Position numbers and translations under genes: made by a program
Shown: piece after piece, positions 8,955 to 64,000 of the stretch
Layout of the letters: every line of letters begins with the position of its first letter
Numbering within the stretch: position 1 is the stretch's first letter
NCBI GenBank assembly: GCA_021812345.1
Contig: JAKANP010000001.1
Location: 54,979-118,978 of the forward strand
Length of the DNA stretch: 64,000 bases
Reading direction: 5' to 3'
DNA from: a bacterium
GTDB lineage: Bacteria; Patescibacteriota; Minisyncoccia; UBA6257; JAGOQP01
Notes under the pieces: model-generated
The model's database searches: none
What the model was told of the DNA's origin: nothing
What the model saw: only the letters and a program-made list of their open reading frames with translations

Positions 8955-8975
8955 TTTTTTTATCGGTCTCAATAT

Positions 8976-15174: not shown

Positions 15175-15203
15175 AAACCCTTTTAAAAAGGGTTTTTATT
15201 TTG
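15175..15203. terminator. Bidirectional terminator between convergent genes
   Basis: aaaccctttt a aaaagggttt hairpin flanked by T-runs on both strands. Confidence 0.4.
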
Positions 15204-16755
15204 GCTCAAGATATAAAACAACGGCATTTTTATCGTTGATTTCTTTTTCTTGAGATGGAAGTAAATAATAAATATTTTTCTCTTTTTGTTTTTCTTGAGT
15301 AAAGGTGTCGGTTATAAACATAATTGTTTCTGCCGGCATCGGTATTCCGTTCACCAAAACTCCATCGGCATTAACAATTACATATTTTTTGATGCTTTGC
15401 GGCATTTGATTCAGTTGATTGCCAAGCTGAACATAGTTTTCACTGAAAGCGTTGGCAACGTTGGGATTTTGCGCCCAAAAAATAAAATAGCTCGCATAAG
15501 ATTGAAAGATCAAAAATACTCCCACAATAATCAGAGTTGCGTAAAAAATTTTTTCTTGAGAACATTTCTTTTGAAAATAATTTATAAAAGCCAGAGCGCC
15601 CAATCCGGCAAGCATATATGACGGGGGAATCATAAGGATTGAACGTAAAGCGTGCGGAATTGATTCGTTTGAAAATACGACCGGCAACATTGCCATAAAC
15701 ATCCAAAATATCAATATCCACCAAAAAAATTCAAATTCTTTATTTTTTTCCGATTCCTCGCTTTCATCTTGTTTTTCGCTTAAATTAATAGCAGACGATT
15801 TGATTTTAGGAATCAATGAAAATATTCCGATTATAAAAAATATTCCGACAAACCAATATATTTCCGGGGATCCGGAAATATTGTGCCTCCAATTTGAATC
15901 TCCCTTAAAATCGAACATTCCCAAAGTTTTTATTATATTGGATGATAAATCCTTTAATGGAGATGCGGACGAAGTGATGGATATTTCGGACGTTCTTCCA
16001 AAAAAGTCTCCCGGATTTTTTATAAAATATATTCCCAAAGGAGAAAATACAATCAATGAAGCTATAACGTAAAAAGCAAAACTTGTAAAAATTTTTTTAA
16101 AATCTATTTTATAAATCCATTTATACAGCAAATAAATAAATATGATCAGAATCGGAGTGGCTCTGTAGGCGATATAAGAATACATTCCCAGTCCATAAAT
16201 GCTTCCTCCCAAAACACTCATTAAAATTATTTTTTTGTAATTTATTTTCTGTTCTTTTAATAATTCAAGCGATAAAATCAGTAAATAAATTCCCCACACC
16301 AATATTGCCGGCGCCATTATCGCTCTAAATCCCATTCTTGAAAAATCAACATGCCAAAAACTGATGGCGGTAAAAAACGAAGACAAAAAAGCCACCAAAT
16401 GGGAATATTTTCTTTTTCTGAAGATGTATTGAGTTAAAAGATAAATTCCTAAAATTGTTATCACTCCCCAAAAAGCGCTCTCGCTTCGCAACACCCAAGG
16501 AGCATGAACTTTAAAAATATATAACAAAAATGACTGAATATTGATAAATAATCCTTCCCGCCCGTTATTTTCAGGATAAAAAACTTTGTAATCTCCCGTG
16601 GATAGAGCTTGTGAGGCATTATTTCCGTTGATTGCTTCATCGGGATAGAGTCCCGGCGGAGTAATCGATAAATTGTAGAATCTAAAAAAGATTGCTATAA
16701 TTAAAACCGTAATAAGCCCATATTTTCTGAAGAAAGAATAAAATTTTTCGTTCAT
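15196..16755 (-). CDS. GT-C fold membrane glycosyltransferase (ArnT/PMT_2-like)
   Basis: 519-aa polytopic protein. The first periplasmic loop has YPDEAINGNNA and NNGREGLF motifs typical of ArnT/PMT_2 family transferases. Confidence 0.7.
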   Translation of the reverse strand: MNEKFYSFFRKYGLITVLIIAIFFRFYNLSITPPGLYPDEAINGNNASQALSTGDYKVFYPENNGREGLFINIQSFLLYIFKVHAPWVLRSESAFWGVITILGIYLLTQYIFRKRKYSHLVAFLSSFFTAISFWHVDFSRMGFRAIMAPAILVWGIYLLILSLELLKEQKINYKKIILMSVLGGSIYGLGMYSYIAYRATPILIIFIYLLYKWIYKIDFKKIFTSFAFYVIASLIVFSPLGIYFIKNPGDFFGRTSEISITSSASPLKDLSSNIIKTLGMFDFKGDSNWRHNISGSPEIYWFVGIFFIIGIFSLIPKIKSSAINLSEKQDESEESEKNKEFEFFWWILIFWMFMAMLPVVFSNESIPHALRSILMIPPSYMLAGLGALAFINYFQKKCSQEKIFYATLIIVGVFLIFQSYASYFIFWAQNPNVANAFSENYVQLGNQLNQMPQSIKKYVIVNADGVLVNGIPMPAETIMFITDTFTQEKQKEKNIYYLLPSQEKEINDKNAVVLYLEPK

Positions 16756-16780: not shown

Positions 16781-17176
16781 ATGGATTCAAATATTGTTCA
16801 TAATATCAATTATCACGAGTTGGCTCAAGAAGTTAATGTTAAAAAAGAAGCCTCTCCCGAATTGTCGCATAAAGAAATAGTATCGAATGTTTTGGAAAAA
16901 AGCGGAATGCCTCCGATGTCTCAGCCAATTACGCCCGCTCCTTCGGTAACTCAATCTTCAAACAAAAACGATGATTCAATTTTGCCGGATTATGCGAAGA
17001 AATCCGATCCGGGTATTCAAAATAAAATTCAACATTTGGTGTCTTTAACTTTGGAAAAGGGATTGAAAGAGGGAATTAATTTTGCAAAAAAAGAGGATCC
17101 ATTTGTCATGGACGCCTATCACGATTCTCTTTCGGATGTTTTGGTTGATGAAATGAAAAAAAGAAAACTTATATAA
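16781..17176 (+). CDS. hypothetical protein, translationally coupled to the downstream ATPase
   Basis: Its stop overlaps the start of the next gene at 17176. No recognisable domain. Confidence 0.4.
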   Translation: MDSNIVHNINYHELAQEVNVKKEASPELSHKEIVSNVLEKSGMPPMSQPITPAPSVTQSSNKNDDSILPDYAKKSDPGIQNKIQHLVSLTLEKGLKEGINFAKKEDPFVMDAYHDSLSDVLVDEMKKRKLI

Positions 17177-19539
17177 TGCAAAGCGTTATTATCACTTTAA
17201 TTATTGTTGTGAGTTTGGCCTCGTTTTTGGGCATAATTTGGTATGTTCTTTTAAAACAACAGAGGGAAAAAATAAAAAAATCTTTAAATTTAAAATTGTT
17301 AACAATCAAAATGCCCCGTCCGGATTTAACGGATTCCAGAGAGCATAATTTCAAAGAAGAAATAAATTTTTCGGAACAGCTTTTCAGTTCTCTTGCCTCG
17401 CTCAAGGAGATGACTGCTTTTGAAGTTGCAGTCCATCATGTCGGCGAGGAAATATTTTTTTATGTGGCGGTTCCTGAAAAAATGGTTTCTTTTATCAGTC
17501 GTCAGATAGAAGGAATTTTTAAGGACTCTCAAGTAACGGCTTCTCCCGAATATAATATTTTTCAACCGGGAGGATTTAACGCCGGATTTTATTTAAAACA
17601 AGACGCTCATTATTCGTTGCCGTTAAGAACTTATCTTGAATCCGAAGCCGATACTTTTTCTCCAATAGTCAGCGGACTTTCTAAAATTAATGAAATTGGT
17701 GAAGGCGCCGTTATCCAAGTTTTAATAAAATCCGCCCCGGAAAGTTATAAGAAAGGCATAGTTTCAATAATAAATTCTTTAAAAAAGGGAGAGAGTTTCA
17801 AAAAAATTGCCTCCACTAAAGCCATCGATTTAAAAGGTTGGGCTGATGTTTTAAAAGATAAAAAACCTGAAGATGATAAAAAACCTTCCATTATCGATGA
17901 AGAATCAATAAAATCGCTTGAAAGAAAAATTTCAAAACCTCTTTTTAAAGTTAATTATCGCGTATTGGTTTCTGCCATCAATCAATTTCAAACGGAGAAT
18001 ATTTTAGACGGTATTGCCGGGTCATTTAATCAATTTGAAGCGCCATTAAAAAATAAATTTAAAATAAATAAAGTAAAAAATTTCCAAAAATTCGCTTATC
18101 AGTTTTCTTTCAGAGATTTTGACGATTCTCAAGCGATGATTTTAAACACCGAAGAGATGGCCGGAATTTTTCACATGCCTTCGTCTTCCACATTATCTCC
18201 AAAGATCAAATGGATAAAATCAAAAGAATCTCCTCCGCCCTCAGAACTTCCCGATAACGGAACTTTGATTGGCCAAAGCAATTTTAGAGGGGAAGTAAAA
18301 CCGGTTTACATAACCGAAAGTGACAGACGCAGACACGTTTATTCTATCGGTCAAACCGGTGTCGGTAAAACAACATTGATGGTGGATATGATTTGGGATG
18401 ATATAAAAAAAGGCAAAGGAGCTTGTTATATTGACCCTCACGGAGATGCCATTGAAACTATTTTAGGATTGATTCCTAAAGAAAGGATGGACGATGTCAT
18501 TGTTTTTGATCCGGGATACACAAAAAAACCTATAGGATTGAACATGCTTGAATACAATTTTGATCATCCCGAAGAAAAAACTTTTATTGTTAACGAAATT
18601 CAGGGAATTTTTAATCGATTGTTTTTAGCTGAAACCATGGGCCCGATGTTTGAACAATATATGCGCAATTCGCTTTTATTGCTGATGGAAGATGCCGTCA
18701 ACGAGCCGGCTACATTTATTGATGTCCCGAGAGTTTTAACCGACGAAGAATTTCGTATTAAAAAATTATCAAGAATTACCAATCCGGTGGTTATAGATTT
18801 TTGGACAAAGGAGGCGAGCAAAGTCGGAGGTGAAGCGTCTTTGGCGAATATGGCTCCGTATATTACTTCCAAATTTAATAATTTTATTGCCAATGATTAT
18901 TTGAGGCCGATTATCGGACAAGCTAAATCGTCTTTTAATTTCAGGCAAATAATGGATGAGAAAAAAATTCTTTTGGTTAATTTATCCAAAGGAAAGATAG
19001 GAGATATCAATGCCGGACTTCTTGGAATGATAATCACGGGAAAATTGCTTATGGCGGCGCTTTCTCGGGTGGATATGGCCGAATCGGAAAGAAATGATTT
19101 TTATCTTCACATCGACGAGTTTCAAAACTTTACCACCGATTCCATTTCCACTATTTTATCGGAAGCCAGAAAGTATCGTCTTAACTTGAATATAACCCAT
19201 CAATTTATTGCTCAGCTTGAAGAAAAAATAAGAGATTCTGTTTTTGGAAACGTCGGTTCTATGGTTGTTTTCAGAGTTGGCGCTCAGGATGCGGAATTTT
19301 TAATCAAGCAATTTGAACCCGTGTTTACGCAATCGGATTTGATGAATATAGACAACTTTAATGCTTACGCCAAAATTTTGATTAACAATCAAACGTCCAA
19401 GCCGTTTAATATGAAAACGGTAATGTATCCCAAGCCGGATGTTGAGCTGGCTCAAAAAATAAAAGAGCTTTCTTTCTTAAAATACGGAAAAGACAGAGTG
19501 GAAGTAGAAAAAGAAATTATGGAAAAACTGAGAAGTTGA
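17176..19539 (+). CDS. membrane-anchored P-loop ATPase of the FtsK/HerA/VirD4(TraG)-like type (T4 coupling-protein-like)
   Basis: N-terminal TM. Walker A SIGQTGVGKTT, Walker B FYLHIDEFQNF. The C-terminal RKYRLNLNITHQFIAQLEEKIRDSVFGNVGSMVVFRVG resembles the TraG/TraD C-terminal motif. Confidence 0.6.
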   Translation: MQSVIITLIIVVSLASFLGIIWYVLLKQQREKIKKSLNLKLLTIKMPRPDLTDSREHNFKEEINFSEQLFSSLASLKEMTAFEVAVHHVGEEIFFYVAVPEKMVSFISRQIEGIFKDSQVTASPEYNIFQPGGFNAGFYLKQDAHYSLPLRTYLESEADTFSPIVSGLSKINEIGEGAVIQVLIKSAPESYKKGIVSIINSLKKGESFKKIASTKAIDLKGWADVLKDKKPEDDKKPSIIDEESIKSLERKISKPLFKVNYRVLVSAINQFQTENILDGIAGSFNQFEAPLKNKFKINKVKNFQKFAYQFSFRDFDDSQAMILNTEEMAGIFHMPSSSTLSPKIKWIKSKESPPPSELPDNGTLIGQSNFRGEVKPVYITESDRRRHVYSIGQTGVGKTTLMVDMIWDDIKKGKGACYIDPHGDAIETILGLIPKERMDDVIVFDPGYTKKPIGLNMLEYNFDHPEEKTFIVNEIQGIFNRLFLAETMGPMFEQYMRNSLLLLMEDAVNEPATFIDVPRVLTDEEFRIKKLSRITNPVVIDFWTKEASKVGGEASLANMAPYITSKFNNFIANDYLRPIIGQAKSSFNFRQIMDEKKILLVNLSKGKIGDINAGLLGMIITGKLLMAALSRVDMAESERNDFYLHIDEFQNFTTDSISTILSEARKYRLNLNITHQFIAQLEEKIRDSVFGNVGSMVVFRVGAQDAEFLIKQFEPVFTQSDLMNIDNFNAYAKILINNQTSKPFNMKTVMYPKPDVELAQKIKELSFLKYGKDRVEVEKEIMEKLRS

Positions 19540-39655: not shown

Positions 39656-39740
39656 CTACGAAATACAAATTAACTACCCTTCGACTTCGCTCAGGGCGAG
39701 TTCCTTCCTTCGCTAAAGCTACGGAGGGCGCGCAAGTTTG

Positions 39741-39966
39741 TCATTCCAGCGGAGGCTGGAATCCAGGAAGCGTGGATCCTGAATCAAGTTCAGGATGACA
39801 AACTCTCTCGTCATTCCAGCGTATGCTGGAATCCAGGAAGCGTGGATCCTGAATCAAGTTCAGGATGACAAACTCTCTCGTCATTCCAGCGGAGGCTGGA
39901 ATCCAGAAAAGATGGATCCTGAAATAAATTCAGGATGACAAACCCTCTCGTCATTCCAGCGAAAGC
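39741..39966. repeat. Tandem array of a 70-bp unit (3 full copies plus a partial fourth), each unit containing two 8-bp hairpins
   Basis: Units at 39741-39810, 39811-39880 (67/70 identical), 39881-39950 (more diverged) and a partial copy from 39951. Each unit has attccagc-NNNN-gctggaat and atcctgaa-tcaagt-ttcaggat stems. There are no unique spacers and no ORF. Confidence 0.85.
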
Positions 39967-40046
39967 TACTCGTTCGAATCAGAGCGGAGGATGGATTCCA
40001 AGCCCATCCTTAATGCCATCTTGATTTGCGTAATAAATTCCAATGT

Positions 40047-40415: not shown

Positions 40416-41861
40416 ATGACAGAATCAGTTCCAATAAGGGTAAGAATCGCTCCATCACCGACGGGATATCTTCACTTAGGCACCATTAGGGCCGCTTTGT
40501 TTAACTATCTTTTTGCCAAAAAAGAAAACGGAAAGTTTATTATAAGAATTGAAGATACGGACACTGAACGTTCCCTGCCTATTTATGAAAGAGATATTCT
40601 TGACGGTTTAAAAAATCTTGAAATAAATTGGGACGAAGGTCCGGACGTGGGAGGAGATTACGGACCGTACAGGCAAAGCGAAAGGATGGAAATTTATAAA
40701 AAATATATAAAAGAATTACTTGATTCAAAAAAAGCATATAAATGTTTTTGCTCCAAAGAAGAATTAGAAGAAGAAAGAAAAGCAATGTTATCGGCCGGAA
40801 TCTTTCCAAAATATAGTGGAAAATGCAGAAATCTGACCGAAGAAGATGTAAAAAGTAAGGAGAAAGACGGGAAAGAAAGCGTAATCAGATTAAATGTTCC
40901 GTCAAATATTGAAATAGAATTTAGTGACATTATCCGTGGAAAAATTTCCGTAAACAGTGATACTATCGGCGATATTGTTATTGCCAGAAACGAACGTTCG
41001 CCATTGTATAATTTGGCGGTTGTTATTGACGATCATTTAATGAAAATTTCTCACGTTATAAGAGGTGAGGATCATATTTCAAACACGCCAAAACAAATTT
41101 TGATTCAAAAAGCGCTCGGAATTGAAATGCCGAAATACGCTCATTTGCCTTTGGTTTTGTCTCCGGACAGAAGCAAGATGTCTAAAAGAAAAATGGAGAC
41201 CTCTTTTGATGAGTATATAAAAGACGGATATCTTCCGGAAGCAATAGTTAATTTTTTGGCATTGCTCGGATGGCACCCTGAAGACGAAAAAGAAATAATG
41301 CCGCTTGAAGAATTAATTTCCAAATTCAGTTTAAAACGAGTTCAAAAAGCCGGAGGAGTTTTTAATATGGAGAAATTGGACTGGTTTAATTCTCAATACA
41401 TAAAAATATTGCCCATAGAAAAACTTGCCCAGAGAATGTCGGCGATTGTTCCATCGAGTTGGACCCTAAATTCCGACAAATTCAAAAAAGCTCTTGAAAT
41501 AGAAAGAGAAAGAATGAAAAAACTCTCCGATTTTAACAGTTCGGCAAAATTATTTTTTGAAAATATAAATTATGATAAAGATTTGTTGGTATGGAAAAAT
41601 CTTCCGCTTGATTCCGCCAAGGACAATCTTTTGAAAGCTAAAAATTTTTTGGAGAAAATGAAAGATTCTGATTTTGATAAAAAAACTCTGGAAGAAAAGT
41701 TTATGCCGCTGGCTTCTTCGTTGGGAAGAGGGGAGTTGTTGTGGCCGTTAAGAGTATCTCTTTCGGGGCAGAAAAATTCTCCCGGACCGTTTGAAATAAT
41801 GGAAGTTTTGGGAAAAAGAGAATCTCTTGAAAGAATTCAGAAAGCAATTGACCTTGCGTAA
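40416..41861 (+). CDS. gltX: glutamyl-tRNA synthetase
   Basis: RVRIAPSPTGYLHLGTIRAALFNYLFAKK (HIGH-type), IRIEDTD, KMSKRK. Confidence 0.88.
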   Translation: MTESVPIRVRIAPSPTGYLHLGTIRAALFNYLFAKKENGKFIIRIEDTDTERSLPIYERDILDGLKNLEINWDEGPDVGGDYGPYRQSERMEIYKKYIKELLDSKKAYKCFCSKEELEEERKAMLSAGIFPKYSGKCRNLTEEDVKSKEKDGKESVIRLNVPSNIEIEFSDIIRGKISVNSDTIGDIVIARNERSPLYNLAVVIDDHLMKISHVIRGEDHISNTPKQILIQKALGIEMPKYAHLPLVLSPDRSKMSKRKMETSFDEYIKDGYLPEAIVNFLALLGWHPEDEKEIMPLEELISKFSLKRVQKAGGVFNMEKLDWFNSQYIKILPIEKLAQRMSAIVPSSWTLNSDKFKKALEIERERMKKLSDFNSSAKLFFENINYDKDLLVWKNLPLDSAKDNLLKAKNFLEKMKDSDFDKKTLEEKFMPLASSLGRGELLWPLRVSLSGQKNSPGPFEIMEVLGKRESLERIQKAIDLA

Positions 41862-41872
41862 ATTAAATTATT

Positions 41873-43174
41873 ATGACTGATAAAAAGCCGATTTTTTATA
41901 TATTGACTTGCTCACTGTTTAGTTTTGTAATAATAACTTTTAGCGTTATTTTTGGTCATTTTTGGGGTGGGGTAGTAATGGCGCAAACAATCGATAAAAG
42001 CGCCTTACAGAGCCAAATTGATGCCAAAAATGGCCAATTGCAACAGATCCAACAGCAATTAAAGGATCAGCAACAGCAATTAATTAACACTCAAAATCAA
42101 AAGCAGACATTATCTTCGGAAGTTAAAAGGATTAATTCCAATATTAATCAAATAAACTTAAATATACAATCAAGCCAAATTCAAATAGAAAAACTCAATC
42201 TTCAGATGCAGGAACTTCAGGGACAAATATCGGACGCTAAAAACGATATTTCCATAAAAAGTCAGGCGGTTGAAGAATTGATGAGGCAGATACAACAATC
42301 GGACAGCGAGAATGTAATCGTCGGTTTCTTAAAAAATAAAACTCTATCCGACGGAGTAATGGAGGCCCAATCTTTGCAGGATTTGAACAATAATCTTATT
42401 GTAAGCATCCAACAATTAAACAATGCCAAACAGAATTTAAATAATATTTTAATAACCACGAATAATACCAAAAATCAAAAAGAGGTTGAAAATTCAAATT
42501 ATCAGAATCAAAAACAAATCGCCAGTGATCTAAAAAACCAAAAACAACAATTTTTAGACCAAACAAAAAATCAGGAAAAAGTTTATCAAAGTTCAATATC
42601 AAAACTTCAACAGCAACAAGTTCAAATTGCTTTAGAAATAGAAACAATAGAAAGCCAATTAAGGTCGGAGATAAATTATAAAAATCTTCCCAAGAGCATT
42701 CCCGGTCTCTTGGAAGTTCCGATTCAAAAAGGAGTTTTTGTAATGACTCAGGGATACGGTTCTACCGGCTTTGCTCAAAAAGCTTATAAAGGAAAATGGC
42801 ATAACGGCATTGATCTTGCGGCACCTATCGGGACTCCGATTATGGCAGCCGCCGACGGAGTTGTAATCAGTGTTGATAATCAGGATAGGTATTGTTATCA
42901 CGGAGCTTATGGAAAATATGTTGCCATAAAACATTACAACGGACTTACAACAATTTATGGTCACATGTCTCTTTATGTTGTTAAAGAAGGAGATAAAGTT
43001 AATCGCGGTCAAGTGATAGGATATGTCGGTCAAACCGGGTATGCCACCGGACCTCATGTTCATTTTGGAGTTTATGATTCGGCGACTTTCAAAATAGCTC
43101 CAAGCGTCTCTTGCGGTCCTAAAATGCCATTAGGAGGAGACTTGAATCCGCTTAATTATGTTTCAATTAATTAA
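41873..43174 (+). CDS. M23/LytM-family peptidase with long N-terminal coiled coil (EnvC-like murein hydrolase activator/endopeptidase)
   Basis: N-terminal TM and Q-rich coiled coil. C-terminal M23 motifs HNGIDLAAPIGTPI and HYNGLTTIYGHMS. Confidence 0.8.
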   Translation: MTDKKPIFYILTCSLFSFVIITFSVIFGHFWGGVVMAQTIDKSALQSQIDAKNGQLQQIQQQLKDQQQQLINTQNQKQTLSSEVKRINSNINQINLNIQSSQIQIEKLNLQMQELQGQISDAKNDISIKSQAVEELMRQIQQSDSENVIVGFLKNKTLSDGVMEAQSLQDLNNNLIVSIQQLNNAKQNLNNILITTNNTKNQKEVENSNYQNQKQIASDLKNQKQQFLDQTKNQEKVYQSSISKLQQQQVQIALEIETIESQLRSEINYKNLPKSIPGLLEVPIQKGVFVMTQGYGSTGFAQKAYKGKWHNGIDLAAPIGTPIMAAADGVVISVDNQDRYCYHGAYGKYVAIKHYNGLTTIYGHMSLYVVKEGDKVNRGQVIGYVGQTGYATGPHVHFGVYDSATFKIAPSVSCGPKMPLGGDLNPLNYVSIN

Positions 43175-43196: not shown

Positions 43197-43475
43197 ATGA
43201 ATAACAATATTGATATTAATAAATTAATTTCATCAATCCTGGCTCCGGTTATCGATTTTTTAAAACGAAATAATATTTGGGATACTTTGGTTAATATATA
43301 TCAATTGGTTTATGGTTTGGTTATCAATCTATGGTCATGGCTGGGGAACAATATTGGAACTCAAAGAATTTTGGATTTTTTAATAACTTTTACAAAATTT
43401 ATTTTGAATATATTTCTTACCTTATTTAGCGTGTTGTCTCAAATAGTAAATTGGGCATTGCACCTGCTTAAATGA
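43197..43475 (+). CDS. hypothetical small protein (92 aa), possibly membrane-associated
   Basis: Open frame with hydrophobic segments. No motif. Confidence 0.3.
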   Translation: MNNNIDINKLISSILAPVIDFLKRNNIWDTLVNIYQLVYGLVINLWSWLGNNIGTQRILDFLITFTKFILNIFLTLFSVLSQIVNWALHLLK

Positions 43476-43592
43476 TTATATTTAAATATTTCAGATATAT
43501 AGTGTCGCAAAATCTACCTTGTGCGACACATAATATAATAAAGATTTAGGCAAATAATCGCTATTCCCTAAATAAACAGGTCAAATAAAAAT

Positions 43593-43617
43593 TCCGATTA
43601 AAAAATCGGATTTTTTG
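43593..43617. terminator. Hairpin tccgatt-aaaa-aatcgga with flanking T/A runs (bidirectional terminator-like)
   Basis: 7-bp stem followed by TTTTTT on the plus strand, with an A-run upstream. Confidence 0.4.
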
Positions 43618-43880
43618 TTTACTTAATTAAATTTTGATAAAAAATTTTCTTGATATTGAAATAACAATATCGGAGATAATAACCAAAAAAATCAAAATAA
43701 TGGCAGTGAAAAAGTTTTTTGGCTGGTCCGGCTCTTTGTTTTCGTGTTTGCTCGCTTCCCCGAATTCCGTTCGTGTCATTTTTTATCCTTTCTTGAAAAA
43801 TGAACTTTAAATAATATAAAACGAATTTTATTTTTTGTCTAGTTAGATATTTTTTTATATTCTGATACAATTTTTATCAA

Positions 43881-44666
43881 ATGAATAATTATCACAATGT
43901 TGAAGAATTTAAAACTCTTGCCGGATATGACATAGACGGCACGTGGTATCCTCGGGTGACTAAAATAGTTGAAATAAAAGCCAAGCCCGCTTTATATAAA
44001 TTTTATGCCGAGCTATCCAGTTTTGAAGAAGGAGAATCCGTTAAAAAAATATCTGCCACCGAAGGAACACTCATTCATGAAACGATAGAAGGAATTTTTA
44101 TGAATAAAAATCCGGAAATAGACTCTACAATCAAGCCGGCAGTAGAAGCTTTCCAAAAATTTATTGCAACAAAAAATATTCAGGTTGATTCCGAGTTTGT
44201 TGAAAAAAGAGTTGCCAATCACGAAGAAAAATATGCAGGAACGATAGACTCGATGGCGCTTATTGACGGGAAGTTTGGAGTATTGGATATAAAAACTTCC
44301 CAGTCTATTTACCGTGATTATAATCTGCAAACTTCGGCTTACATGGCGGCGCTTGAAAAAGATTTTCCGACATTACAAACGAGGTGGATATTGAGAATAG
44401 ATCAAAATAAAATATGTAAAAAATGCGGAGCCACTTTACGTCCCAAAGGCGGAAGAGAGAAAATTCGTTTGCCATGGGACCCAAAAGACAAAAGCATAAG
44501 AGCTAGAGCTTCCGTTTGTGAACATGAATGGTCGGATTTAAGAGGAGAAATTGAACTTAAAGAATTCCCCTACTGGAAGGATGATTACAAAGCGTTCTTG
44601 GGCGCTAAAAAATTGTGGGAATGGGAAAATGAATTTTGGCTCAAGCAGGCCGGATATTTGCAATAA
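43881..44666 (+). CDS. PD-(D/E)XK superfamily nuclease (Cas4/RecB-like core) with C-terminal Cys/His zinc-ribbon-like segment
   Basis: GTIDSMALIDGKFGVLDIKTSQSIY fits the D...(hydrophobic)xDxK...Q/Y PD-(D/E)XK core. C-terminal CKKCG...CEHEW. Confidence 0.55.
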   Translation: MNNYHNVEEFKTLAGYDIDGTWYPRVTKIVEIKAKPALYKFYAELSSFEEGESVKKISATEGTLIHETIEGIFMNKNPEIDSTIKPAVEAFQKFIATKNIQVDSEFVEKRVANHEEKYAGTIDSMALIDGKFGVLDIKTSQSIYRDYNLQTSAYMAALEKDFPTLQTRWILRIDQNKICKKCGATLRPKGGREKIRLPWDPKDKSIRARASVCEHEWSDLRGEIELKEFPYWKDDYKAFLGAKKLWEWENEFWLKQAGYLQ

Positions 44667-44828
44667 TTGATTTTAATATTTTTGGATAATTATCGGAATT
44701 TTGGAAAAATCTCTTCCTGATATAAATCCCAACGCATAAGCCAGTAAAATTATCAGCAGTCCCATAATTGAAAGCAAAATATTTTTTTTATTGTTTCTAA
44801 TCCAGATTTTTAATCTTACAAACATATA

Positions 44829-45524
44829 TTATAAATTAAGATATTTATCCCATCTGCGATAAATTTCGGCGGTGGCTTTTAAATCTCTCAGATTGTATTC
44901 CGCTACATCCAAAATTTTATTTTCTTTATAAAGAGCGGTAACATTATCCCCTGTTACCCCCTGTTCTTTGGGGCTTTCTACTCCGAATGCTTTACTCCAC
45001 ATATGCAAAGGAAAATGATTTCTTGTCGCTCCATAAAAAGTAAGCTGATCGGCTAAGTCTATGTGTTTGGCGCCAAATTGTTGAGAGTTCAGGTATCTAT
45101 TTGAAAGAAGATTTTTTGACGGTCTGATTCCAAATATTGCCGAACGAACTTCCAAAAAAGGGACATCAAACCCTCTTCCATAAAAAGAAATAAAAACGCC
45201 GTATTGTTTTATTATTTCCCAAAATTTTTCTAAAATTTCTTTTTCACTCCCCTGCTCTAAAATTATTCCATCTCCGATTTCTTCGGGTAGTTTTATATTA
45301 TTATCGTTTCTTAGCAATATTCTTCCCTGATTGGTTTCGGGGTTTAACATTCCAATTACCACAATTTCTCCGGTTAATGGATAAAAACTTGTTCCGTTTT
45401 TTGCTTGAATTTCATCTTCTTCGCTTTCGGCATATTTTAGAAGATGTTCTTGGGACATCTTATCCAAAGATTCAAAATCATTGCCTATGGTTTCCACATC
45501 AAAAACTAATTTTGCATTTGACAT
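44829..45524 (-). CDS. DEDD-type 3'-5' exonuclease (RNase H-like fold, PolB-exonuclease/YprB-like)
   Basis: Exo I motif FDVETIG at the N-terminus. Downstream acidic/Tyr motifs (YGRGFDVPFL, H....D) are consistent with DnaQ-like exonucleases. Confidence 0.62.
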   Translation of the reverse strand: MSNAKLVFDVETIGNDFESLDKMSQEHLLKYAESEEDEIQAKNGTSFYPLTGEIVVIGMLNPETNQGRILLRNDNNIKLPEEIGDGIILEQGSEKEILEKFWEIIKQYGVFISFYGRGFDVPFLEVRSAIFGIRPSKNLLSNRYLNSQQFGAKHIDLADQLTFYGATRNHFPLHMWSKAFGVESPKEQGVTGDNVTALYKENKILDVAEYNLRDLKATAEIYRRWDKYLNL

Positions 45525-45589
45525 ATTGGTTTATTATATACTATAATGGAAAAAATCAAAACATTATTTTTGATTTTATTTTTTAATTT

Positions 45590-45862
45590 ATGGCGCATAC
45601 TAAACAGCTCGGTTCAACTAAGTTGGGCCGAGAATCAGAATCGAAAAGATTAGGAGTTAAACGTCAGCAAGGACAAAAAGTCAATGCCGGCGAAATTTTA
45701 ATCAGACAAAGAGGAACAAGATATCTTCCCGGTTTTAACATAAAAAAAGGCAAAGATGATACTCTTTATGCCGGCAAATCCGGCGTTGTCCAGTTTAAAA
45801 AAGTTAAGAAAACTAACTTCAACGGCAGACCGAGATATGCCACTCAAATCAGTGTAAAATAA
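45590..45862 (+). CDS. rpmA: 50S ribosomal protein L27
   Basis: [25 protein letters not shown]... is the L27 signature. Confidence 0.88.
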
Positions 45863-50918: not shown

Positions 50919-51980
50919 TCAGGCTTTAGCCGGGTTTGTAACGTGAGAATCGGATGTGATGTTAAGCCATCTTTCGATAGCCATCGATACGGTTATCCCG
51001 ACGAGACTTCCCGTGATGGTGAACGTGATGTAAGGAGTCAACAGCATCAAAGACATTTGTTCGCGAGTAAGATATCTGAACGTCAAATACCAAATTCCAT
51101 TACTGAAAACGGAAGCAATTGCGTGATAAATAAAGTTATTTCTGCTTCTGGCCCGACTGATGAGAGCAAAACTGATATTCTGAGAAATTGCCAAAATCAT
51201 CAGAATGTAAGCTTGGTCGATGGTTTTGGATATAACCGCAAACAAAATACCGATCGTTGCCAATATTGATGCCGGAACCAGCGGAGAAACAGAATCCTTA
51301 TTTTTCAGATGAGAGTCGGCGGAAGTTCCCACCAATCTTTCGATGGTCATGGAAACTTTCTGCCCCGACATTCCTCCAAGAATCGATCCGAAAAGATACG
51401 GCGGGAAAAGGTCAAACGTCAATTTCGCCATAATTAACTCTCTCCACATAAAATACCACAGAACTCCGTCAACAATCGATATCAATGCATGATAAGTGGC
51501 ATTATTTGTGTTGCGTGAACGTCTTACAGCCGTAAAGCCGGCATCCTTCATGAAAGCCAGCGCCGCCAGCGTCATCAATGCCAAAGCGCTTTTTCTGGCA
51601 AGAATTATTGACAGAAGAATCAAAATTCCCATCATCACCAAAAGAAATACCTGAGCCATCTTTGGAGTTGAAGTATTCTTGTTTGGCTTGGTTGTTATAT
51701 TGAACAACTTTTCGATCTTCATTGAAAGCGCGGCTCCGCTTACGCTTCCAAAAACAGTAGCTACGGTGTATGGAACCCACAAAATCAAAGTCATGTTTTT
51801 ACTGACCAACATTTTTAATGTGGAAAAGAAGACAAGATTTGAAAGCAACATAGTAAAGGCGTAGTAAATAAAACTGTTTCTATTTCCCGCCCTGCTGGTT
51901 AACGAATAACAGGTATTCTGTATGTATGCCATTAAAACCAACAGCAAAACGAAAGACAGCGAAAGTGTCATCTTGTCCAT
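50919..51980 (-). CDS. polytopic membrane protein built from three internal repeats (each with S-R-x3-RN-x2-[FIY]-Y ... PY ... GS..G...SM.IE[RK][LW] motifs)
   Basis: Repeats are visible by eye around residues 20-95, 140-235 and 260-353 (LTSRAGNRNSFIYY / AVRRSRNTNNATYH / LISRARSRNNFIYH, and SMKIEKLFNITT / SMTIERLVGTS / SMAIERWLNITS). GC is elevated (~45%). Confidence 0.55.
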   Translation of the reverse strand: MDKMTLSLSFVLLLVLMAYIQNTCYSLTSRAGNRNSFIYYAFTMLLSNLVFFSTLKMLVSKNMTLILWVPYTVATVFGSVSGAALSMKIEKLFNITTKPNKNTSTPKMAQVFLLVMMGILILLSIILARKSALALMTLAALAFMKDAGFTAVRRSRNTNNATYHALISIVDGVLWYFMWRELIMAKLTFDLFPPYLFGSILGGMSGQKVSMTIERLVGTSADSHLKNKDSVSPLVPASILATIGILFAVISKTIDQAYILMILAISQNISFALISRARSRNNFIYHAIASVFSNGIWYLTFRYLTREQMSLMLLTPYITFTITGSLVGITVSMAIERWLNITSDSHVTNPAKA

Positions 51981-52112: not shown

Positions 52113-54920
52113 TTATGCCGGATTAGGCAGGAATGATTCCCAATCCAATTTGGCATTTTCCTTAATAAATTTATGAATTTGATCGGCGGGAAGCACACGG
52201 ACAAGAATTGGCGCACTTTGAGGTCCCTCTGCCGGAAGTCCCACAAATGAGACTCCGGAACTGTTAGGAGGAAATCCAAGTTCACCGTACTGATCGGTAT
52301 GAACATCGGCTCCCGAGCTGTGATAAATCGCGTATCCGGTAATTACTGTTCCCGTAAAATGTTTGTCGCCAACCGTTTTCAAGGTTATGCGATGATTCAT
52401 AATTCTATTGTAATTACCGCGACGAATATCATTGCGAACCATATTAAGCAATGTGTCGCCCCAATTTACACCTTGACCGGTAGGAGTATCTCGAAAATCG
52501 ATGCCGTATTCATATCCATCCGGAATTTGGAACGTTCCCCACGCAATGTATTGATTTCCAAAGAGAGGAGATTTAATCGAATGCTCGATCCATTCCGGAT
52601 GATTTGCCCAATGAGAAAGAGCAAGCAACTTAGCCTTAAGGATCCGGGCATAAATGAACCCTTCCGTTATCGTTTTGTCGGTTGTCTTAAGAATATGATT
52701 TCCGGTTCCATCGCTGATAATACCAACGTCGCGACGGTCGAAATCGGTTCCATTAAAATCACTGATTCCCTTGACAATGAGTCCGGACTTTTTAGCCCGA
52801 CGCAAAACAGCATCAAAAAATTCAACACCTTCCAAAACAAGAGAATCGATAGCTTCCTCAATTTGATCTTGAGCCCAATGAATTCCTCTGTACCAAAGTT
52901 GTGTTAACATAAACCTTCGCGCTTTTTCAAAATAAAAACGCAACTTATCCGGATCACTTTCATTCATCGCTCTATCACTCATATCCATAAGCTTTTTCTG
53001 AATTTGAGTGTAATTCATAGCGCGCGGATCCGGTTGTTTGTGGTTCTCATAATGATGTCCGTGGACGCCATCGTCATTCATGGTAACGCTATGAATTGGC
53101 ATAGCATCATTTTCAAAAAGACCGTCACGTTCCATCATCTTAAAACTTGCTTCAGTAATACCGACAACTTTCCCGTTGGGCATACTGATTATTTCCCGCG
53201 AAGGAGAACCAATATGAGTATCGGTAATTTCTTCAACCCATATATATTTCGGTTTGGGAACCGTGATTCCTCTTGCTTTGCTTTCCTTAATTCGTATTGA
53301 TGTTTTTTGAAGAGACTCAGTAGACCAGACAACCGGTTGGAATTTTCCATCAACCATTTTAAGTGTCAAAACTCCACTTTCAAATTGCTCGTTAAGCATA
53401 GAATTCGAAAGCTTGTGAACTTTCCTGATGGTGTCGCGAAGAGTTCCTCTGATAAAACGCTTATCAATCGCAATCGGCGCGACAAATACCTGAGCCGAAC
53501 CTCGTTTTCCGTCCGCATCCACTTGGCGTTCCGTAGAACGATAGTTGACGGCAAAAGGATGGCAAATAACAACATTATCCGCCATGCGTTCACGAAGAAC
53601 CTTCGGACCGTAAGAATTGCAGTAATTAGCCAACAACTCGTCACTCGGATCGTCGTTTCTGGGAATATTAATCTCAATACTTTGGCCGTTGTTTCTCGCA
53701 AAAGTGCTTCCGATGCCGATAACCTTGGAATTCGGAATAGTTTCTTCGATTCTCTTGATCACGAAGCGCATTACTTTGTAGTAATAACGCTTATGTTCTT
53801 GAGATGCTATGTTTGACGCCGCAGTGCGAGCCAGTTCATTCGAAACAGATTCCAAATTTTTTCTCAACTCATCGGCTAGAGAATGATCTTTTTTGTTGAT
53901 TGCGTGAGCAATTTGAATTTCCAACAAACGCTTTTGAACGTTCAATTCGTTTTGAATCCGTCTCATAAAATACAACTCTTCCCAATAAGCGCCGGCGGCA
54001 ATAATTTCTTCATCTCTGTAACCAAGAACAACCAATATCTGTCCGTTGAACGTCGGGTTCTTTTTGGTGCCGACAATCTTGGACCAACCTCTCATGCTTT
54101 CGGTGAACAATTCCGCGGTTGTCTGAAACATTATCTCGTCATGCGGTTGTTTTTCGATGATTCTTTTTGCCTTTTCGGCATAATCACGATCGAGATCGTC
54201 AGGATTGACATTGCGTCCGGAAAGAAGAGCTCGAAGAACCTTAATCGGTCCGGCTGCTTTCTTGGTATCGATATCAAGAATGTTGGTCAAAATTATCGCG
54301 GAATGCTTATAATAGCAAGCAATTTCAAGCGGTTGGCGCGCAGGATTCTCGGATATTACGCTGCTGTAAGGAATTCCCAAATTGACTCCGTTAAGAAATG
54401 TGATAGCGGCAGGGCTATCGTCATTGTCTGAACGAATTTCAAACGGTTTGATAAATGTTCCGGTTTCGAAATGCAACGGTTCCCCGCTCATTTCGGAAAT
54501 TTCTTCGCCTAGTCGCAAGATGCCCTTAACAAATCCGGTAGAAGATGAATCTTTCCGTCCGATTGTATTGCCGTGCAGTTGATTCCACTTTCTTACAAAT
54601 AATTCATAAGGAATATATGAAACGGCAGAATAAACTTTATTCATTTCCAATCGATGACGAACGGCAATTTTAATTTCCGCAAGAACCTTGAAAGTCCATA
54701 TCAATTCGATAATCTTACGTTGAAAATTGCGTTTATTAAAATTATATTCCGGCTTTTTCAGATGTTCAGCAAATTCTTCCTTAATTGCCTCGTACAAATA
54801 GTCGATGCCTTTGTCTTTTAACGTGCCGTCATAAATTAATTTTTCGATTCGATCAATAAGTCCGGAAATTTTCCAAGTATCTTTCTTCTTCCTTGCGGAA
54901 ACTTCCTTCTTGGAGCTCAT
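52113..54920 (-). CDS. large (935 aa) two-part protein: unknown N-terminal ~550-aa region plus C-terminal calcineurin-like metallophosphoesterase domain
   Basis: Metallophosphatase motif I (WVEEITDTHIGSP, D-x-H), probable motif II (NDDGVHG), motif III (ISDGTGNHIL, GNH), and downstream His-containing motifs. No P-loop. GC is about 45% against ~35% background. Confidence 0.6.
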   Translation of the reverse strand: MSSKKEVSARKKKDTWKISGLIDRIEKLIYDGTLKDKGIDYLYEAIKEEFAEHLKKPEYNFNKRNFQRKIIELIWTFKVLAEIKIAVRHRLEMNKVYSAVSYIPYELFVRKWNQLHGNTIGRKDSSSTGFVKGILRLGEEISEMSGEPLHFETGTFIKPFEIRSDNDDSPAAITFLNGVNLGIPYSSVISENPARQPLEIACYYKHSAIILTNILDIDTKKAAGPIKVLRALLSGRNVNPDDLDRDYAEKAKRIIEKQPHDEIMFQTTAELFTESMRGWSKIVGTKKNPTFNGQILVVLGYRDEEIIAAGAYWEELYFMRRIQNELNVQKRLLEIQIAHAINKKDHSLADELRKNLESVSNELARTAASNIASQEHKRYYYKVMRFVIKRIEETIPNSKVIGIGSTFARNNGQSIEINIPRNDDPSDELLANYCNSYGPKVLRERMADNVVICHPFAVNYRSTERQVDADGKRGSAQVFVAPIAIDKRFIRGTLRDTIRKVHKLSNSMLNEQFESGVLTLKMVDGKFQPVVWSTESLQKTSIRIKESKARGITVPKPKYIWVEEITDTHIGSPSREIISMPNGKVVGITEASFKMMERDGLFENDAMPIHSVTMNDDGVHGHHYENHKQPDPRAMNYTQIQKKLMDMSDRAMNESDPDKLRFYFEKARRFMLTQLWYRGIHWAQDQIEEAIDSLVLEGVEFFDAVLRRAKKSGLIVKGISDFNGTDFDRRDVGIISDGTGNHILKTTDKTITEGFIYARILKAKLLALSHWANHPEWIEHSIKSPLFGNQYIAWGTFQIPDGYEYGIDFRDTPTGQGVNWGDTLLNMVRNDIRRGNYNRIMNHRITLKTVGDKHFTGTVITGYAIYHSSGADVHTDQYGELGFPPNSSGVSFVGLPAEGPQSAPILVRVLPADQIHKFIKENAKLDWESFLPNPA

Positions 54921-61626: not shown

Positions 61627-64000
61627 TTATCTTGGAATTATTTCACGAAGAACAGGAATAAATCCGACATTGACAGTGGTCTGAGTATCGGTAACGGTCG
61701 GAGCTCCATCACAAGAAAGGTTATATTGAGTAGTAGCAATTGGTTTCACTCTGAATGTTCCGGATTCGGTTCCTGTGGCAACCATGCTATTATCCGAAAC
61801 TTTGGTAATTGCACAATTTCTTGAAACTCCGGTTGGGTCACAAGACCAAGATAAAATGGAAGATTGTCCGGTTAAAATTGACGAAGAAGAAGCGGTGAAA
61901 GTACAGGAAGCGGGAGTCAATGACTGGCAAGTAGCGCTATAAACACTGTTGTCATTTTGGGCACATCTATAAATATCGGCGTACACTGATTTTCCAAAAT
62001 ATTGACCCCACTGGCTATCCAAAGTACTACACATTATTTCCGGTTCATTTTTTAATAATTGACCGGGCTGTGGAACTTGGACGTAATCGGTTTCTCCATT
62101 ACTTGATGTATTTCTGGAACCGGACCAACCAACTATAACAGAAGACCCCCTTGATGTTGTAGTAGCATAACAATTAGTTACATTATTCACTGACCAAGAT
62201 AATACTATCGGATATGTTGAAAATTGATAGTTATATGGAACTATAAGAGGATCTATCGATACGTCAGTCCATTTATATTTAGGTGGAGGAGATAATACTT
62301 TTATATAACTACCTCCAAAACCTGTAGAAAAGCCGTTATTTTGAGTTGTAGACCACACCGTCGCCGGATTGAGACCATCCGCTACAGCCATCCACCCATT
62401 AGGCCTATTTGTAACGCCAGTTCCATTAATGTTGAGTAAGCACGAAGTCGTGTTATTATTTTTATCACTCACTCCTATATTTAGATGACAGCCGTTAACC
62501 GAATCACCACAAGTATATGTTGGTGTGCTATTGTATCCATAACAAGTCATGTCAGCTATAGCGCCTGGCCAGTTATAACATCTATAAGGAGACGTCCCTC
62601 CGGTAATTCCTACCGAAACTTGAGTTGGAGCGCTACTTGATGGATTTGCCGTAAGATTGCAGGAAAAACCTCCCGGAGGTGGCGGAGTTGAGCTTACTAT
62701 ATCTATATCCGCATTTGCCGAATGATTTAATGTTCCGCTCACTCCTGTAACTGTGAATGTGTATCTTTCAATTACTGCAGCACTTGAGACATTTAACGTA
62801 AGATTGGAAGTTCCGCTTGTTGAAATTGTTTGAGGAGAAGGAGTTCCTGTTGTGCCGCTGTGAAGACCGGATATTGATAAAGCTACATTTCCGGTAAACC
62901 CCCCGCTTGGGGTTACTGATATTGTATATGATGCTGAACCTGGCTTTGTAGTAGAAGCATAATTCGGAGAAATAGAAATTAAAAAGTCTGGAATTCCCGG
63001 AGGATTAGTTACGTTAAGAATGGCTGTAGCATTGATACTATTATAAGTAGAATTAATTCCTGCAGTTCCTGATTTTTTTCCCAAATAGAGTCCACTTCCT
63101 TGAGATGAAGCAATTGATGAATCGGGAGCGTTAACCGCCCAAGAAGCAAATTGATTAACTTTAAAATTTCCATATCTTATATCCGTTCCATCCGGATCAT
63201 ATAATCCGTTGTATTGATATGTGCTACCAACGGTTGTTGTCGCGCTTGGAGGATCAATAACATAAGTCGGGGTATGACCTGGTGGTGGCGGAGGAGGAGA
63301 ATCACAATCGCCGGCATATGGAAATGGAGTTTTTACAGAAATAGTATTGGATGGGGAACTTTCTCCACTACTGTTCACGGAAGTCACATAATAATTATAG
63401 GTTGAATTAACATTTACATTTTGATCTATATACCAAGTATTGATTGTGTTGGCTATTTTTGATCCGTTTCTGTAAACATTATAATTTGAAGCGCCGGAAA
63501 CCGGGCTCCACCCTAAAATTGCTTGGACTGAAGCTGATGGATAGTTTTGATGACATTCACCGTTTGCAGCAAAATTCGTTGGAGATCCCGGGATACCACC
63601 TCCTATTGGTGCAAAATAGAGTTTTATTTCTTGTTCTAGCGGCGGAAGAGATGCGTTAGTTCTTACATTAGTTATCGAACCACTATTGCTACAATATTGA
63701 TATCCATTTGGAGGAACTACATTTTTACCAGTAACGGTAAATTTTGAAGGGTAATAAGAATCCCATGGTCCCCACGTAAAATCATTTGGTTTTTGAGGCG
63801 TGTTGCTTAATGAAGCTGTTGGGTAATCGGCAATGGTAGTTTGGGCGGGACCACTGGTGATTGTTACGTCAAATCTTACATTGGGATCATTAGGGCTCAT
63901 AGCCACAGCGCCCGCCAAAGGAGCGGAACAATTTGGTAAGGTGTAACCATTAAAATGGACTAAGTCGTGGAATTGACTAACGGATATTGTCTTTGTAGTT
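61627..64000 (-). CDS. very large S/T/N/G-rich surface protein with FN3-like repeats (5' end beyond window)
   Basis: The frame stays open upstream of the first start codon out to the window edge. FN3-like motif (WYIDQNVNVNSTYNYYVTSVNSSGESSP) and long low-complexity T/S/G/N tracts. Confidence 0.55.
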   Translation of the reverse strand, partial: TTKTISVSQFHDLVHFNGYTLPNCSAPLAGAVAMSPNDPNVRFDVTITSGPAQTTIADYPTASLSNTPQKPNDFTWGPWDSYYPSKFTVTGKNVVPPNGYQYCSNSGSITNVRTNASLPPLEQEIKLYFAPIGGGIPGSPTNFAANGECHQNYPSASVQAILGWSPVSGASNYNVYRNGSKIANTINTWYIDQNVNVNSTYNYYVTSVNSSGESSPSNTISVKTPFPYAGDCDSPPPPPPGHTPTYVIDPPSATTTVGSTYQYNGLYDPDGTDIRYGNFKVNQFASWAVNAPDSSIASSQGSGLYLGKKSGTAGINSTYNSINATAILNVTNPPGIPDFLISISPNYASTTKPGSASYTISVTPSGGFTGNVALSISGLHSGTTGTPSPQTISTSGTSNLTLNVSSAAVIERYTFTVTGVSGTLNHSANADIDIVSSTPPPPGGFSCNLTANPSSSAPTQVSVGITGGTSPYRCYNWPGAIADMTCYGYNSTPTYTCGDSVNGCHLNIGVSDKNNNTTSCLLNINGTGVTNRPNGWMAVADGLNPATVWSTTQNNGFSTGFGGSYIKVLSPPPKYKWTDVSIDPLIVPYNYQFSTYPIVLSWSVNNVTNCYATTTSRGSSVIVGWSGSRNTSSNGETDYVQVPQPGQLLKNEPEIMCSTLDSQWGQYFGKSVYADIYRCAQNDNSVYSATCQSLTPASCTFTASSSSILTGQSSILSWSCDPTGVSRNCAITKVSDNSMVATGTESGTFRVKPIATTQYNLSCDGAPTVTDTQTTVNVGFIPVLREIIPR

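Follow-up and report, generated by a model that had tools for sequence, protein, structure and literature searches.

Two genes for predicted DNA-degrading enzymes lie tail to tail in the genome of an ultra-small bacterium of the Patescibacteriota, and the question raised by this locus is whether the two belong together. The stretch of DNA that was analysed, hereafter the window, covers 64,000 nucleotides (nt) of contig JAKANP010000001.1 (GenBank assembly GCA_021812345.1, positions 54,979 to 118,978), and all coordinates given without a locus label refer to it. An earlier reading of the sequence, from here on the original prediction, had described a Cas4/RecB-like PD-(D/E)XK nuclease with a zinc ribbon, here called open reading frame (ORF) A, facing a DEDD 3'-5' exonuclease, here ORF B, and had suggested that they could act as a minimal nuclease pair in repair, competence DNA processing or defence. 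Comparison with related genomes does not support a dedicated pair or system. We lean towards a different explanation, in which ORF A and ORF B are independent, vertically inherited housekeeping enzymes of replication and repair in a small-genome group. That group is the Candidate Phyla Radiation (CPR), bacteria known for their reduced gene content. The two genes are as follows.

43881-44666, + strand: ORF A, 261 amino acids (aa), predicted MGME1-like RecB-type PD-(D/E)XK nuclease
44829-45524, - strand: ORF B, 231 aa, predicted standalone PolB-exonuclease-like DEDDy 3'-5' exonuclease

Sequence comparison shows both to be real genes: for each of them over 2000 homologues were found at E <= 1e-3. 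The convergent arrangement is as originally described. The close homologues of both come exclusively from CPR bacteria of the Parcubacteria/Wolfebacteria/Paceibacterota type, all represented by metagenome-assembled genomes.

Linkage of ORF A and ORF B in related genomes

Regions of ±10 kb around ORF A relatives were fetched in 80 species-representative (GTDB) genomes, and the proteins neighbouring ORF A in the window were mapped onto them. The loci were found with a profile built from a 13-sequence alignment (A2), a 30-sequence alignment of the family (A1) being too diverse. Neighbouring genes were named from Pfam matches in the syntenic loci and in the window. Those next to the two nuclease genes are listed here.

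40416-41861, + strand: gltX, upstream of ORF A
41873-43174, + strand: gene for a coiled-coil M23 peptidase, upstream of ORF A
43197-43475, + strand: small ORF of 92 aa, 3' of the M23 peptidase gene, with a counterpart of 89-100 aa in related loci
45590-45862, + strand: rpmA (ribosomal protein L27; PF01016 in syntenic loci), divergent from ORF B and its constant neighbour

Beyond rpmA follow rplI, a gene for a CtpA-type S41 protease, ligT, def and fmt. The original prediction had noted a small ORF and a palindromic region on one side of the two genes and rpmA on the other, and this holds: the 92-aa ORF is followed by a 405-nt gap containing hairpins and palindromes upstream of ORF A. It had also found no helicase or recombinase partner, and within about 5 kb the neighbours are indeed confined to gltX and the genes for the M23 peptidase, L27, L9, CtpA, LigT, Def and Fmt.

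Upstream counts were taken from the 57 loci with at least 5 kb of sequence upstream of ORF A, and downstream counts from the 61 with at least 4 kb downstream. On this basis, gltX lies upstream of ORF A on the same strand in 50/57 loci and rpmA lies downstream in 47/61, 15 of which have no ORF B, whereas ORF B is found convergent between ORF A and rpmA, within 4 kb, in only 33/61. The linkage of ORF A to ORF B is therefore weaker than its linkage to the unrelated genes on either side. Where both are present, the gap between them ranges from 137 to 2843 nt and in some cases holds unrelated genes; locus L001, to give an example, has genes for a Zip transporter and for a 421-aa protein there. ORF B, for its part, adjoins rpmA in 32 of the 33 loci, the tblastn matches to the two lying 37-333 nt apart. 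In the window, and in each of the 33 clade loci with both genes, ORF A and ORF B point towards each other, so that they cannot be co-transcribed, and no operon joins them.

The complete genome KatS3mg098 is particularly informative. Here ORF A stays at the end of a series running mraY-amidohydrolase-ftsW-murG-gltX-M23-small ORF, and ORF B lies about 75 kb away, still accompanied by rpmA-rplI-ctpA-ligT-def-fmt; the rearrangement broke exactly at the boundary between ORF A and ORF B. The adjacency seen in the window would accordingly be the junction of two conserved blocks, one (mraY-ftsW-murG-gltX-M23-[small ORF]) ending in ORF A and the other made up of ORF B, with a small transmembrane ORF, and of the divergent series rpmA-rplI-ctpA-ligT-def-fmt. 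An ORF A relative at 52% identity retains murG-gltX-M23 and has no ORF B nearby. Two distant ORF A relatives (P0242 and P0250) lie on contigs of 1-1.6 kb, too short to show their neighbours. Sampling centred on ORF B covered 80 metagenome loci (ORF B at 38-64% identity); of the 31 with enough flanking sequence, 3 had ORF A no more than 4 kb away, and many of the more distant ORF B genes adjoin ctpA instead. Consistent co-localisation with unrelated housekeeping genes was the very pattern that the original prediction had set against its own pair proposal, and it is what the relatives show: ORF A keeps company with gltX and rpmA more constantly than with ORF B, and in KatS3mg098 the two are split altogether.

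As a separate observation, the roughly 6 kb after ORF B in KatS3mg098 (locus L087, 6001-12699) carry a Zip transporter, a uracil-DNA glycosylase (UDG), an RRM protein, a PDDEXK_1 protein, AP endonuclease 2 and archease-RtcB, which is a loose cluster of nucleic-acid repair genes. The PDDEXK_1 protein in this cluster is Cas4-like and has 243 aa; it was considered as a paralogue of ORF A and rejected (BLASTP E 0.23).

The predicted nucleases ORF A and ORF B

Searches with the single ORF A sequence place it poorly. The match to Pfam PDDEXK_1 (PF12705) scores 16.6 bits, under the gathering cut-off of 22, and a precomputed PF12705 match exists for 1/120 of the ORF A homologues listed; against the PDB, MGME1 appears at a non-significant E of 0.24. 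The best library match is PHROG 298, 'exonuclease' (phrog_298, E 2.7e-24, residues 16-252). A profile of alignment A1, which holds 30 family members, finds MGME1 chains at E 1e-14 when searched against the whole PDB, and nothing else significant, the Cas4 protein SSO0001 appearing at E 0.77. The profile alignment also shows an N-terminal P-R-V-T motif common to MGME1 and the ORF A family. Structure points the same way: in a fold comparison with the AlphaFold model of ORF A (predicted local distance difference test, pLDDT, 94.8; predicted TM-score, pTM, 0.88), MGME1 is the closest entry.

The active site of MGME1 has been defined by crystallography and mutagenesis, with H180, E223, D238, D251, K253, Q271 and Y275 as metal- and DNA-binding residues (PMC6237815). 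These align with H66, E108, D123, D136, K138, Q150 and Y154 of ORF A. Counted over 131 family sequences, the full set of motifs (H66, E108, D123, D136-x-K138 and Q150-x3-Y154) is conserved in 129-131/131, and the RecB-type catalytic motifs among them, which are also a criterion for Cas4 (D123, D136-I-K138 and Q150-x3-Y154), in 130-131/131. From these residues ORF A looks catalytically intact, and it is a RecB-type PD-(D/E)XK nuclease of the MGME1/phage-exonuclease type. Homology suggests that the catalytic metal or metals would be bound, and water activated, by D123, D136 and K138 with the help of H66 and E108, and that Q150 and Y154 would hold phosphates beside the scissile bond. The expected activity, again from homology, would be that of a Mg2+/Mn2+-dependent nuclease acting on free ends and flaps of single-stranded DNA (ssDNA).

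The closest relatives of ORF A by profile and fold (MGME1, Dna2, RecE, Cas4, AdnAB and lambda exonuclease) are all DNA nucleases, and a phage connection runs through the wider family. Many phage proteins in BFVD match ORF A structurally, at E 1e-9 to 1e-10, and short homologues of about 200-230 aa are found in phage-like gene arrays. The likeness to phage PD-(D/E)XK exonucleases (PHROG 298/466; RecE, lambda exonuclease, LHK-Exo) extends over library matches, structures and gene arrays. MGME1-like proteins have been reported to group with phage and archaeal exonucleases (PMC3597694), a grouping with which the phrog_298 match, the phage-like arrays of the short relatives and the phage structural matches are all consistent.

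MGME1/Ddk1 (human mitochondrial genome maintenance exonuclease 1; PDB 5ZYT/5ZYU/5ZYW/8XA9) is characterised by a helical arch through which only ssDNA fits and by bidirectional exonuclease activity on ssDNA. ORF A differs from it in several respects. The identity is only 19%, there is no mitochondrial targeting region, and ORF A is bacterial, chromosomal and limited to a CPR clade, whereas MGME1 proper has been reported only from Opisthokonta (PMC3597694). ORF A also has an insertion of about 45 aa, built around a CxxC...CxH pattern, which MGME1 and the short phage relatives lack.

44406-44540, + strand: predicted zinc-knuckle/ribbon insertion of ORF A, approximately residues 176-220 (about 45 aa), between two core beta-strands

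The putative ligands are C179-x2-C182 and C213-x-H215. C179, C182 and H215 are each present in 131/131 family sequences and C213 in 124/131. Of the seven sequences without C213, six have a Cys 2-3 residues before it and one has a His close by; the set as a whole is kept in 130/131. ORF A contains exactly three Cys (179, 182 and 213), as do 114/131 family members in number. In the model, residues 171-220 have block-mean pLDDT values of 93-97, with a hairpin of strands 185-189 and 192-196 and a helix at 205-211. Sequence and model together would give ORF A two ligand pairs on a beta-hairpin, family-wide, as expected of zinc ribbons and knuckles. The insertion also carries a conserved basic loop, R-x-KGGR-x-K-I-R, and it is absent from the short relatives of about 200-230 aa in alignment A1. 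The Cys3-His knuckle is a predicted metal site specific to this lineage, and the architecture bearing it is narrow, with 25 clusters (50% identity) at E < 1e-30 against 2601 at E < 1e-3. Knuckle and basic KGGR loop would most likely provide an extra grip on nucleic acid or on a partner.

Of the original description, then, the PD-(D/E)XK nuclease and the zinc module stand, and the assignment to the Cas4 sub-family does not, MGME1 being closer by both profile and fold. Cas4 shares the RecB-type D, D/ExK and QxxxY motifs with ORF A. All Cas4 proteins have a four-Cys Fe-S module, with one Cys N-terminal and three C-terminal (PMC5704561). In ORF A, the three Cys sit together in one internal insertion and none is at the N- or C-terminal Cas4 positions; lacking the four-Cys module, it lacks the defining feature of Cas4. 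Scores against the Cas4 models fall short as well (PF01930, 10.5 bits against a cut-off of 22.7; TIGR00372, 18.6 bits against 65). The absent Fe-S module and these sub-threshold scores rule out Cas4 (COG1468/PF01930/TIGR00372) as the identity of ORF A. As the original prediction had remarked, no cas genes or array accompany it: there is no cas gene, cas1 and cas2 included, within about 5 kb and no CRISPR array in the window. Relatives of ORF A occur in about 530 species-representative genomes, where the family is labelled 'hypothetical protein' and has no Pfam call. We conclude that ORF A represents a sub-family so far without annotation, whose members are MGME1-like nucleases fixed in bacterial chromosomes and bearing a zinc-knuckle insertion.

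ORF B was more readily placed. It scores 72.2 bits against Pfam PF10108 (DNA_pol_B_exo2), well above the gathering cut-off of 24, and its best PDB sequence match is the exonuclease domain of Sulfolobus PolB1. The model (pLDDT 88.4) has the fold of a PolB exonuclease domain without a polymerase domain. All 121 sequences compared keep D9 and E11 of Exo I, D120 of Exo II and, in Exo III, Y210-x3-D214, which bears out the DEDD 3'-5' exonuclease originally proposed; in both proteins, therefore, the catalytic residues called for are present on alignment and conserved. The invariant Exo I-III residues and the PolB-type fold predict a catalytically competent DEDDy exonuclease, in which D9, E11, D120 and D214 would bind two Mg2+ and Y210 would position the attacking water, so that nucleotides are removed from 3' ends. 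The Tyr sets ORF B apart from DnaQ/epsilon, ExoI/ExoX, Cas2-DEDDh and Cap18, all of which are DEDDh, and ORF B is clearly nearer to the exonuclease domains of family-B polymerases than to DnaQ/epsilon, ExoI/ExoX or the Cas- or CBASS-associated DEDDh exonucleases. It is an ordinary member of PF10108, with the same architecture and no attached polymerase, TPR or helicase domain. That family is known but uncharacterised (PMC3985635). The literature on CPR nucleases, DNA uptake and proofreading held nothing specific to the ORF A or ORF B families, PF10108 appearing there only as a 'predicted exonuclease' cluster.

In the closest sister lineage (GCA_021837745.1), whose ORF A is 95% identical, the ORF B orthologue (L175, 6464-7166; L176, 1790-2492) carries a +1 frameshift in a tract of eight T residues. 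The shift falls just before Exo II and splits ORF B into ORFs of 119 aa and 108 aa; it is present in two separate assemblies, and ORF A is intact in them. Possible readings are a pseudogene, a slippage site and an assembly error common to both.

Constraint and candidate roles

In the 30 genomes that have all the markers, the median identity to the window protein is 69% for ORF A, 67% for L27, 56% for GltX and 52% for Def, with ORF B at 51%, CtpA at 50% and L9 at 36%. An identity on a par with that of L27 indicates unusually strong purifying selection on ORF A, and argues for a core function and against a defence or accessory one. ORF A is the more indispensable of the two, and by its sequence it probably has a core role in DNA-end or flap processing. 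Substrates and polarity we infer for both enzymes from homology, and the cellular role that we would propose is conjecture: each would independently trim DNA ends or flaps in replication and repair.

Some observations weigh against treating ORF A and ORF B as independent. The two are still neighbours in 54% of close-clade genomes. In a divergent lineage (locus L125), ORF B (7995-8690) and ORF A (8797-9534) follow one another in the same direction, downstream of gltX-M23 and separated by 106 nt; no single inversion derives this order from the convergent one in the window, and it is the pattern expected of functionally linked genes. Elsewhere, exonuclease domains of the PF13482 type (RNase-H-like) are fused to Cas4-like DUF83 domains (COG2251; PMC3985635). 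One could hence suppose that ORF A, as a 5' or flap ssDNA nuclease, cooperates with the 3'-5' exonuclease ORF B and replaces missing functions of the RecJ/ExoI or RecBCD type, their proximity (33/61 clade genomes) being kept for co-regulation. The complementary polarities predicted for the two, the independent L125 order and the published fusions would all suit such cooperation. We think it rather unlikely. The genes are convergent and not co-transcribed, their spacing varies with unrelated genes inserted, and the linkage is below that of ORF A to gltX or rpmA. Moreover, KatS3mg098 separates them at exactly this boundary, ORF A is seldom near distant ORF B homologues (3/31), and in the closest sister lineage ORF B is apparently frameshifted and ORF A is not. 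CPR bacteria for the most part cannot make nucleotides de novo, and they have DNA-uptake genes of the competence type. Given that they are thought to depend on nucleotide salvage and DNA uptake, one or both enzymes might degrade imported or damaged DNA for its nucleotides, or process incoming ssDNA in natural transformation. Strong conservation of ORF A would suit an indispensable metabolic role, and MGME1 degrades ssDNA from both ends (PMC6237815), which would suit it too. The conserved neighbourhood, however, contains no com genes, nucleotidases or nucleoside transporters, and a reading of the two sequences reveals no signal peptide and no membrane anchor in either; the data do not separate this role from replication and repair, and we assign it a low probability.

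The translation-related neighbours and the ribosomal-protein-like conservation could also suggest an RNA-processing enzyme, with ORF A acting in rRNA or tRNA maturation or in RNA repair. This is very unlikely. Its nearest relatives by profile and fold are without exception DNA nucleases, and among them a QxxxY motif such as that of ORF A typifies the RecB-type DNA exonucleases. MGME1 itself has no RNase activity (PMC6237815). The neighbourhood appears to be generic core synteny and not an operon, considering the terminator-like hairpin before ORF A and its own promoter-like site, both described below. Finally, there is hardly any chance that the two genes are an anti-phage defence module or the remnant of a mobile element, that is, a solo Cas4-like gene beside a DEDD exonuclease. 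In its favour are single-domain PADLOC matches that are weak (Cas4, 4e-6; DEDDh, 1e-3), the phage-borne character of the wider ORF A family and the reported over-representation of solo Cas4 in CPR (PMC5704561). PADLOC matched no system-specific protein model, the weak generic Cas4 and DEDDh domain matches being all that it returned. ORF A lacks the Cas4 Fe-S module; the window contains no CRISPR array, and no cas gene was found among that part of its ORFs which was scanned against Pfam. Integrase, tRNA junction and flanking repeats are all absent. The GC content is native, at 0.346 for the locus in a window that is low throughout (0.32-0.41), and ORF A is fixed in core housekeeping synteny in most species-level loci examined. 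It is also as conserved as a ribosomal protein, the opposite of how defence genes typically behave. The defence role entertained by the original prediction is not supported by these results, and a prophage or mobile-element origin of the locus is rejected by composition and fixed synteny.

Under the independent-housekeeping explanation, which we prefer, the nuclease pair would itself be ordinary, two housekeeping genes abutting by chance, and ORF A would be the point of value. It is the closest bacterial-chromosomal relative of human MGME1 in this analysis, with a zinc module in addition, and can reasonably be put forward as a candidate core nuclease for DNA ends or flaps in organisms about whose means of replication and repair little is understood. 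MGME1-type chemistry might also gain in it a tractable bacterial model. None of this will greatly surprise a specialist. A bolder proposal would make ORF A the bacterial chromosomal counterpart of MGME1, a zinc-knuckle ssDNA and flap nuclease essential to replication or repair in Paceibacteria, perhaps forming with ORF B a two-polarity end-trimming pair that replaces the canonical bacterial exonucleases. We regard this as unlikely. If it were true, an essential role would explain the ribosomal-protein-like conservation of ORF A, and mitochondria and CPR bacteria would each have recruited the MGME1/phage-exonuclease lineage independently to core genome maintenance.

Small genes, signals and repeats around the locus

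Between the two nuclease genes lies a third gene, absent from the original prediction, which we call sm50. It is listed below with the transcription signals of the region. Promoters and terminators were identified by consensus matches only, and promoter-like sites in the region are no more numerous than expected by chance.

44673-44825, - strand: sm50, conserved small ORF of 50 aa with one predicted transmembrane helix
43844-43871, + strand: promoter-like site for ORF A, ending 9 nt upstream of its ATG (TAGATA-16-TACAAT, TG-extended)
43593-43610, no strand assigned: bidirectional terminator-like hairpin between the 92-aa ORF and ORF A
45518-45547, + strand: perfect sigma-70 consensus promoter for rpmA (TTGACA-18-TATAAT, 12/12 match)

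sm50 begins 3 nt past the stop of ORF B, and its own stop is 6 nt from that of ORF A. Family searches returned no match for it. By tblastn it is present in many related loci, including some without ORF B (for instance L008, L057, L063 and L067), and it is annotated as a gene of 55-56 aa in L001 and L003. Where ORF B has been lost or relocated, sm50 is still convergent with ORF A at gaps of 13-125 nt. On this sequence evidence, sm50 is a real conserved gene. The promoter-like site so close to the ATG makes it probable that ORF A is read from a promoter of its own, with a leader that is very short or absent, and the upstream terminator-like hairpin implies that it is transcribed alone. Between ORF A and the sm50-ORF B unit there is no terminator, so the convergent transcripts would overlap. 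On the other side, the -35 hexamer of the rpmA promoter overlaps the first codons of the divergent ORF B.

The 405-nt gap upstream of ORF A may contain a further ORF of 50 aa (43627-43779, - strand), the C-terminal part of which is a hydrophobic helix. Its promoter-like site is at 43841-43813, and the terminator-like hairpin at 43593-43610 is shared by it. Downstream of the 92-aa ORF, a hairpin or palindrome of the form GTGTCGCA-N12-TGCGACAC occupies 43502-43529, its sole occurrence in the window. L006 has it unchanged; L008 keeps the right arm only, as TTGTGCGACAC; and in L009 a double change (T-A to A-T) and a change of G-C to G-U leave the pairing intact. This element may be a structure formed in RNA or a site bound by protein.

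Elsewhere the window carries, among others, secY, a gene for a DisA-type DAC protein, two tRNA synthetase genes, dnaX and obg, as well as three tRNAs, with no other Rfam family. Several large ORFs stand apart from these. Those of 935 aa (52113-54920, - strand) and 353 aa (50919-51980, - strand) have no Pfam match above the curated cut-off, the former showing a sub-threshold match to IQUB (E 9e-4), and ORFs at 17176-19539 (+ strand, 787 aa), 61627-63918 (- strand, 763 aa) and 15196-16755 (- strand, 519 aa) have none in a scan at E <= 1e-5. Such a lack of matches is typical of CPR 'dark' proteins.

A tandem repeat at 39740-39967 lies in the 760-nt gap between a murG-like ORF and gltX. It consists of 3.2 copies of a GC-rich 70-nt unit, 89-95% identical, and is absent from all 174 related loci fetched. 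A CRISPR array was considered and rejected, in that whole units repeat and there are no variable spacers. In each unit, GTCAT...ATGAC frames a pair of perfect hairpins, TTCCAGC..GCTGGAA and ATCCTGAA..TTCAGGAT, and the repeat folds far better than shuffled sequence (z = -5.6).

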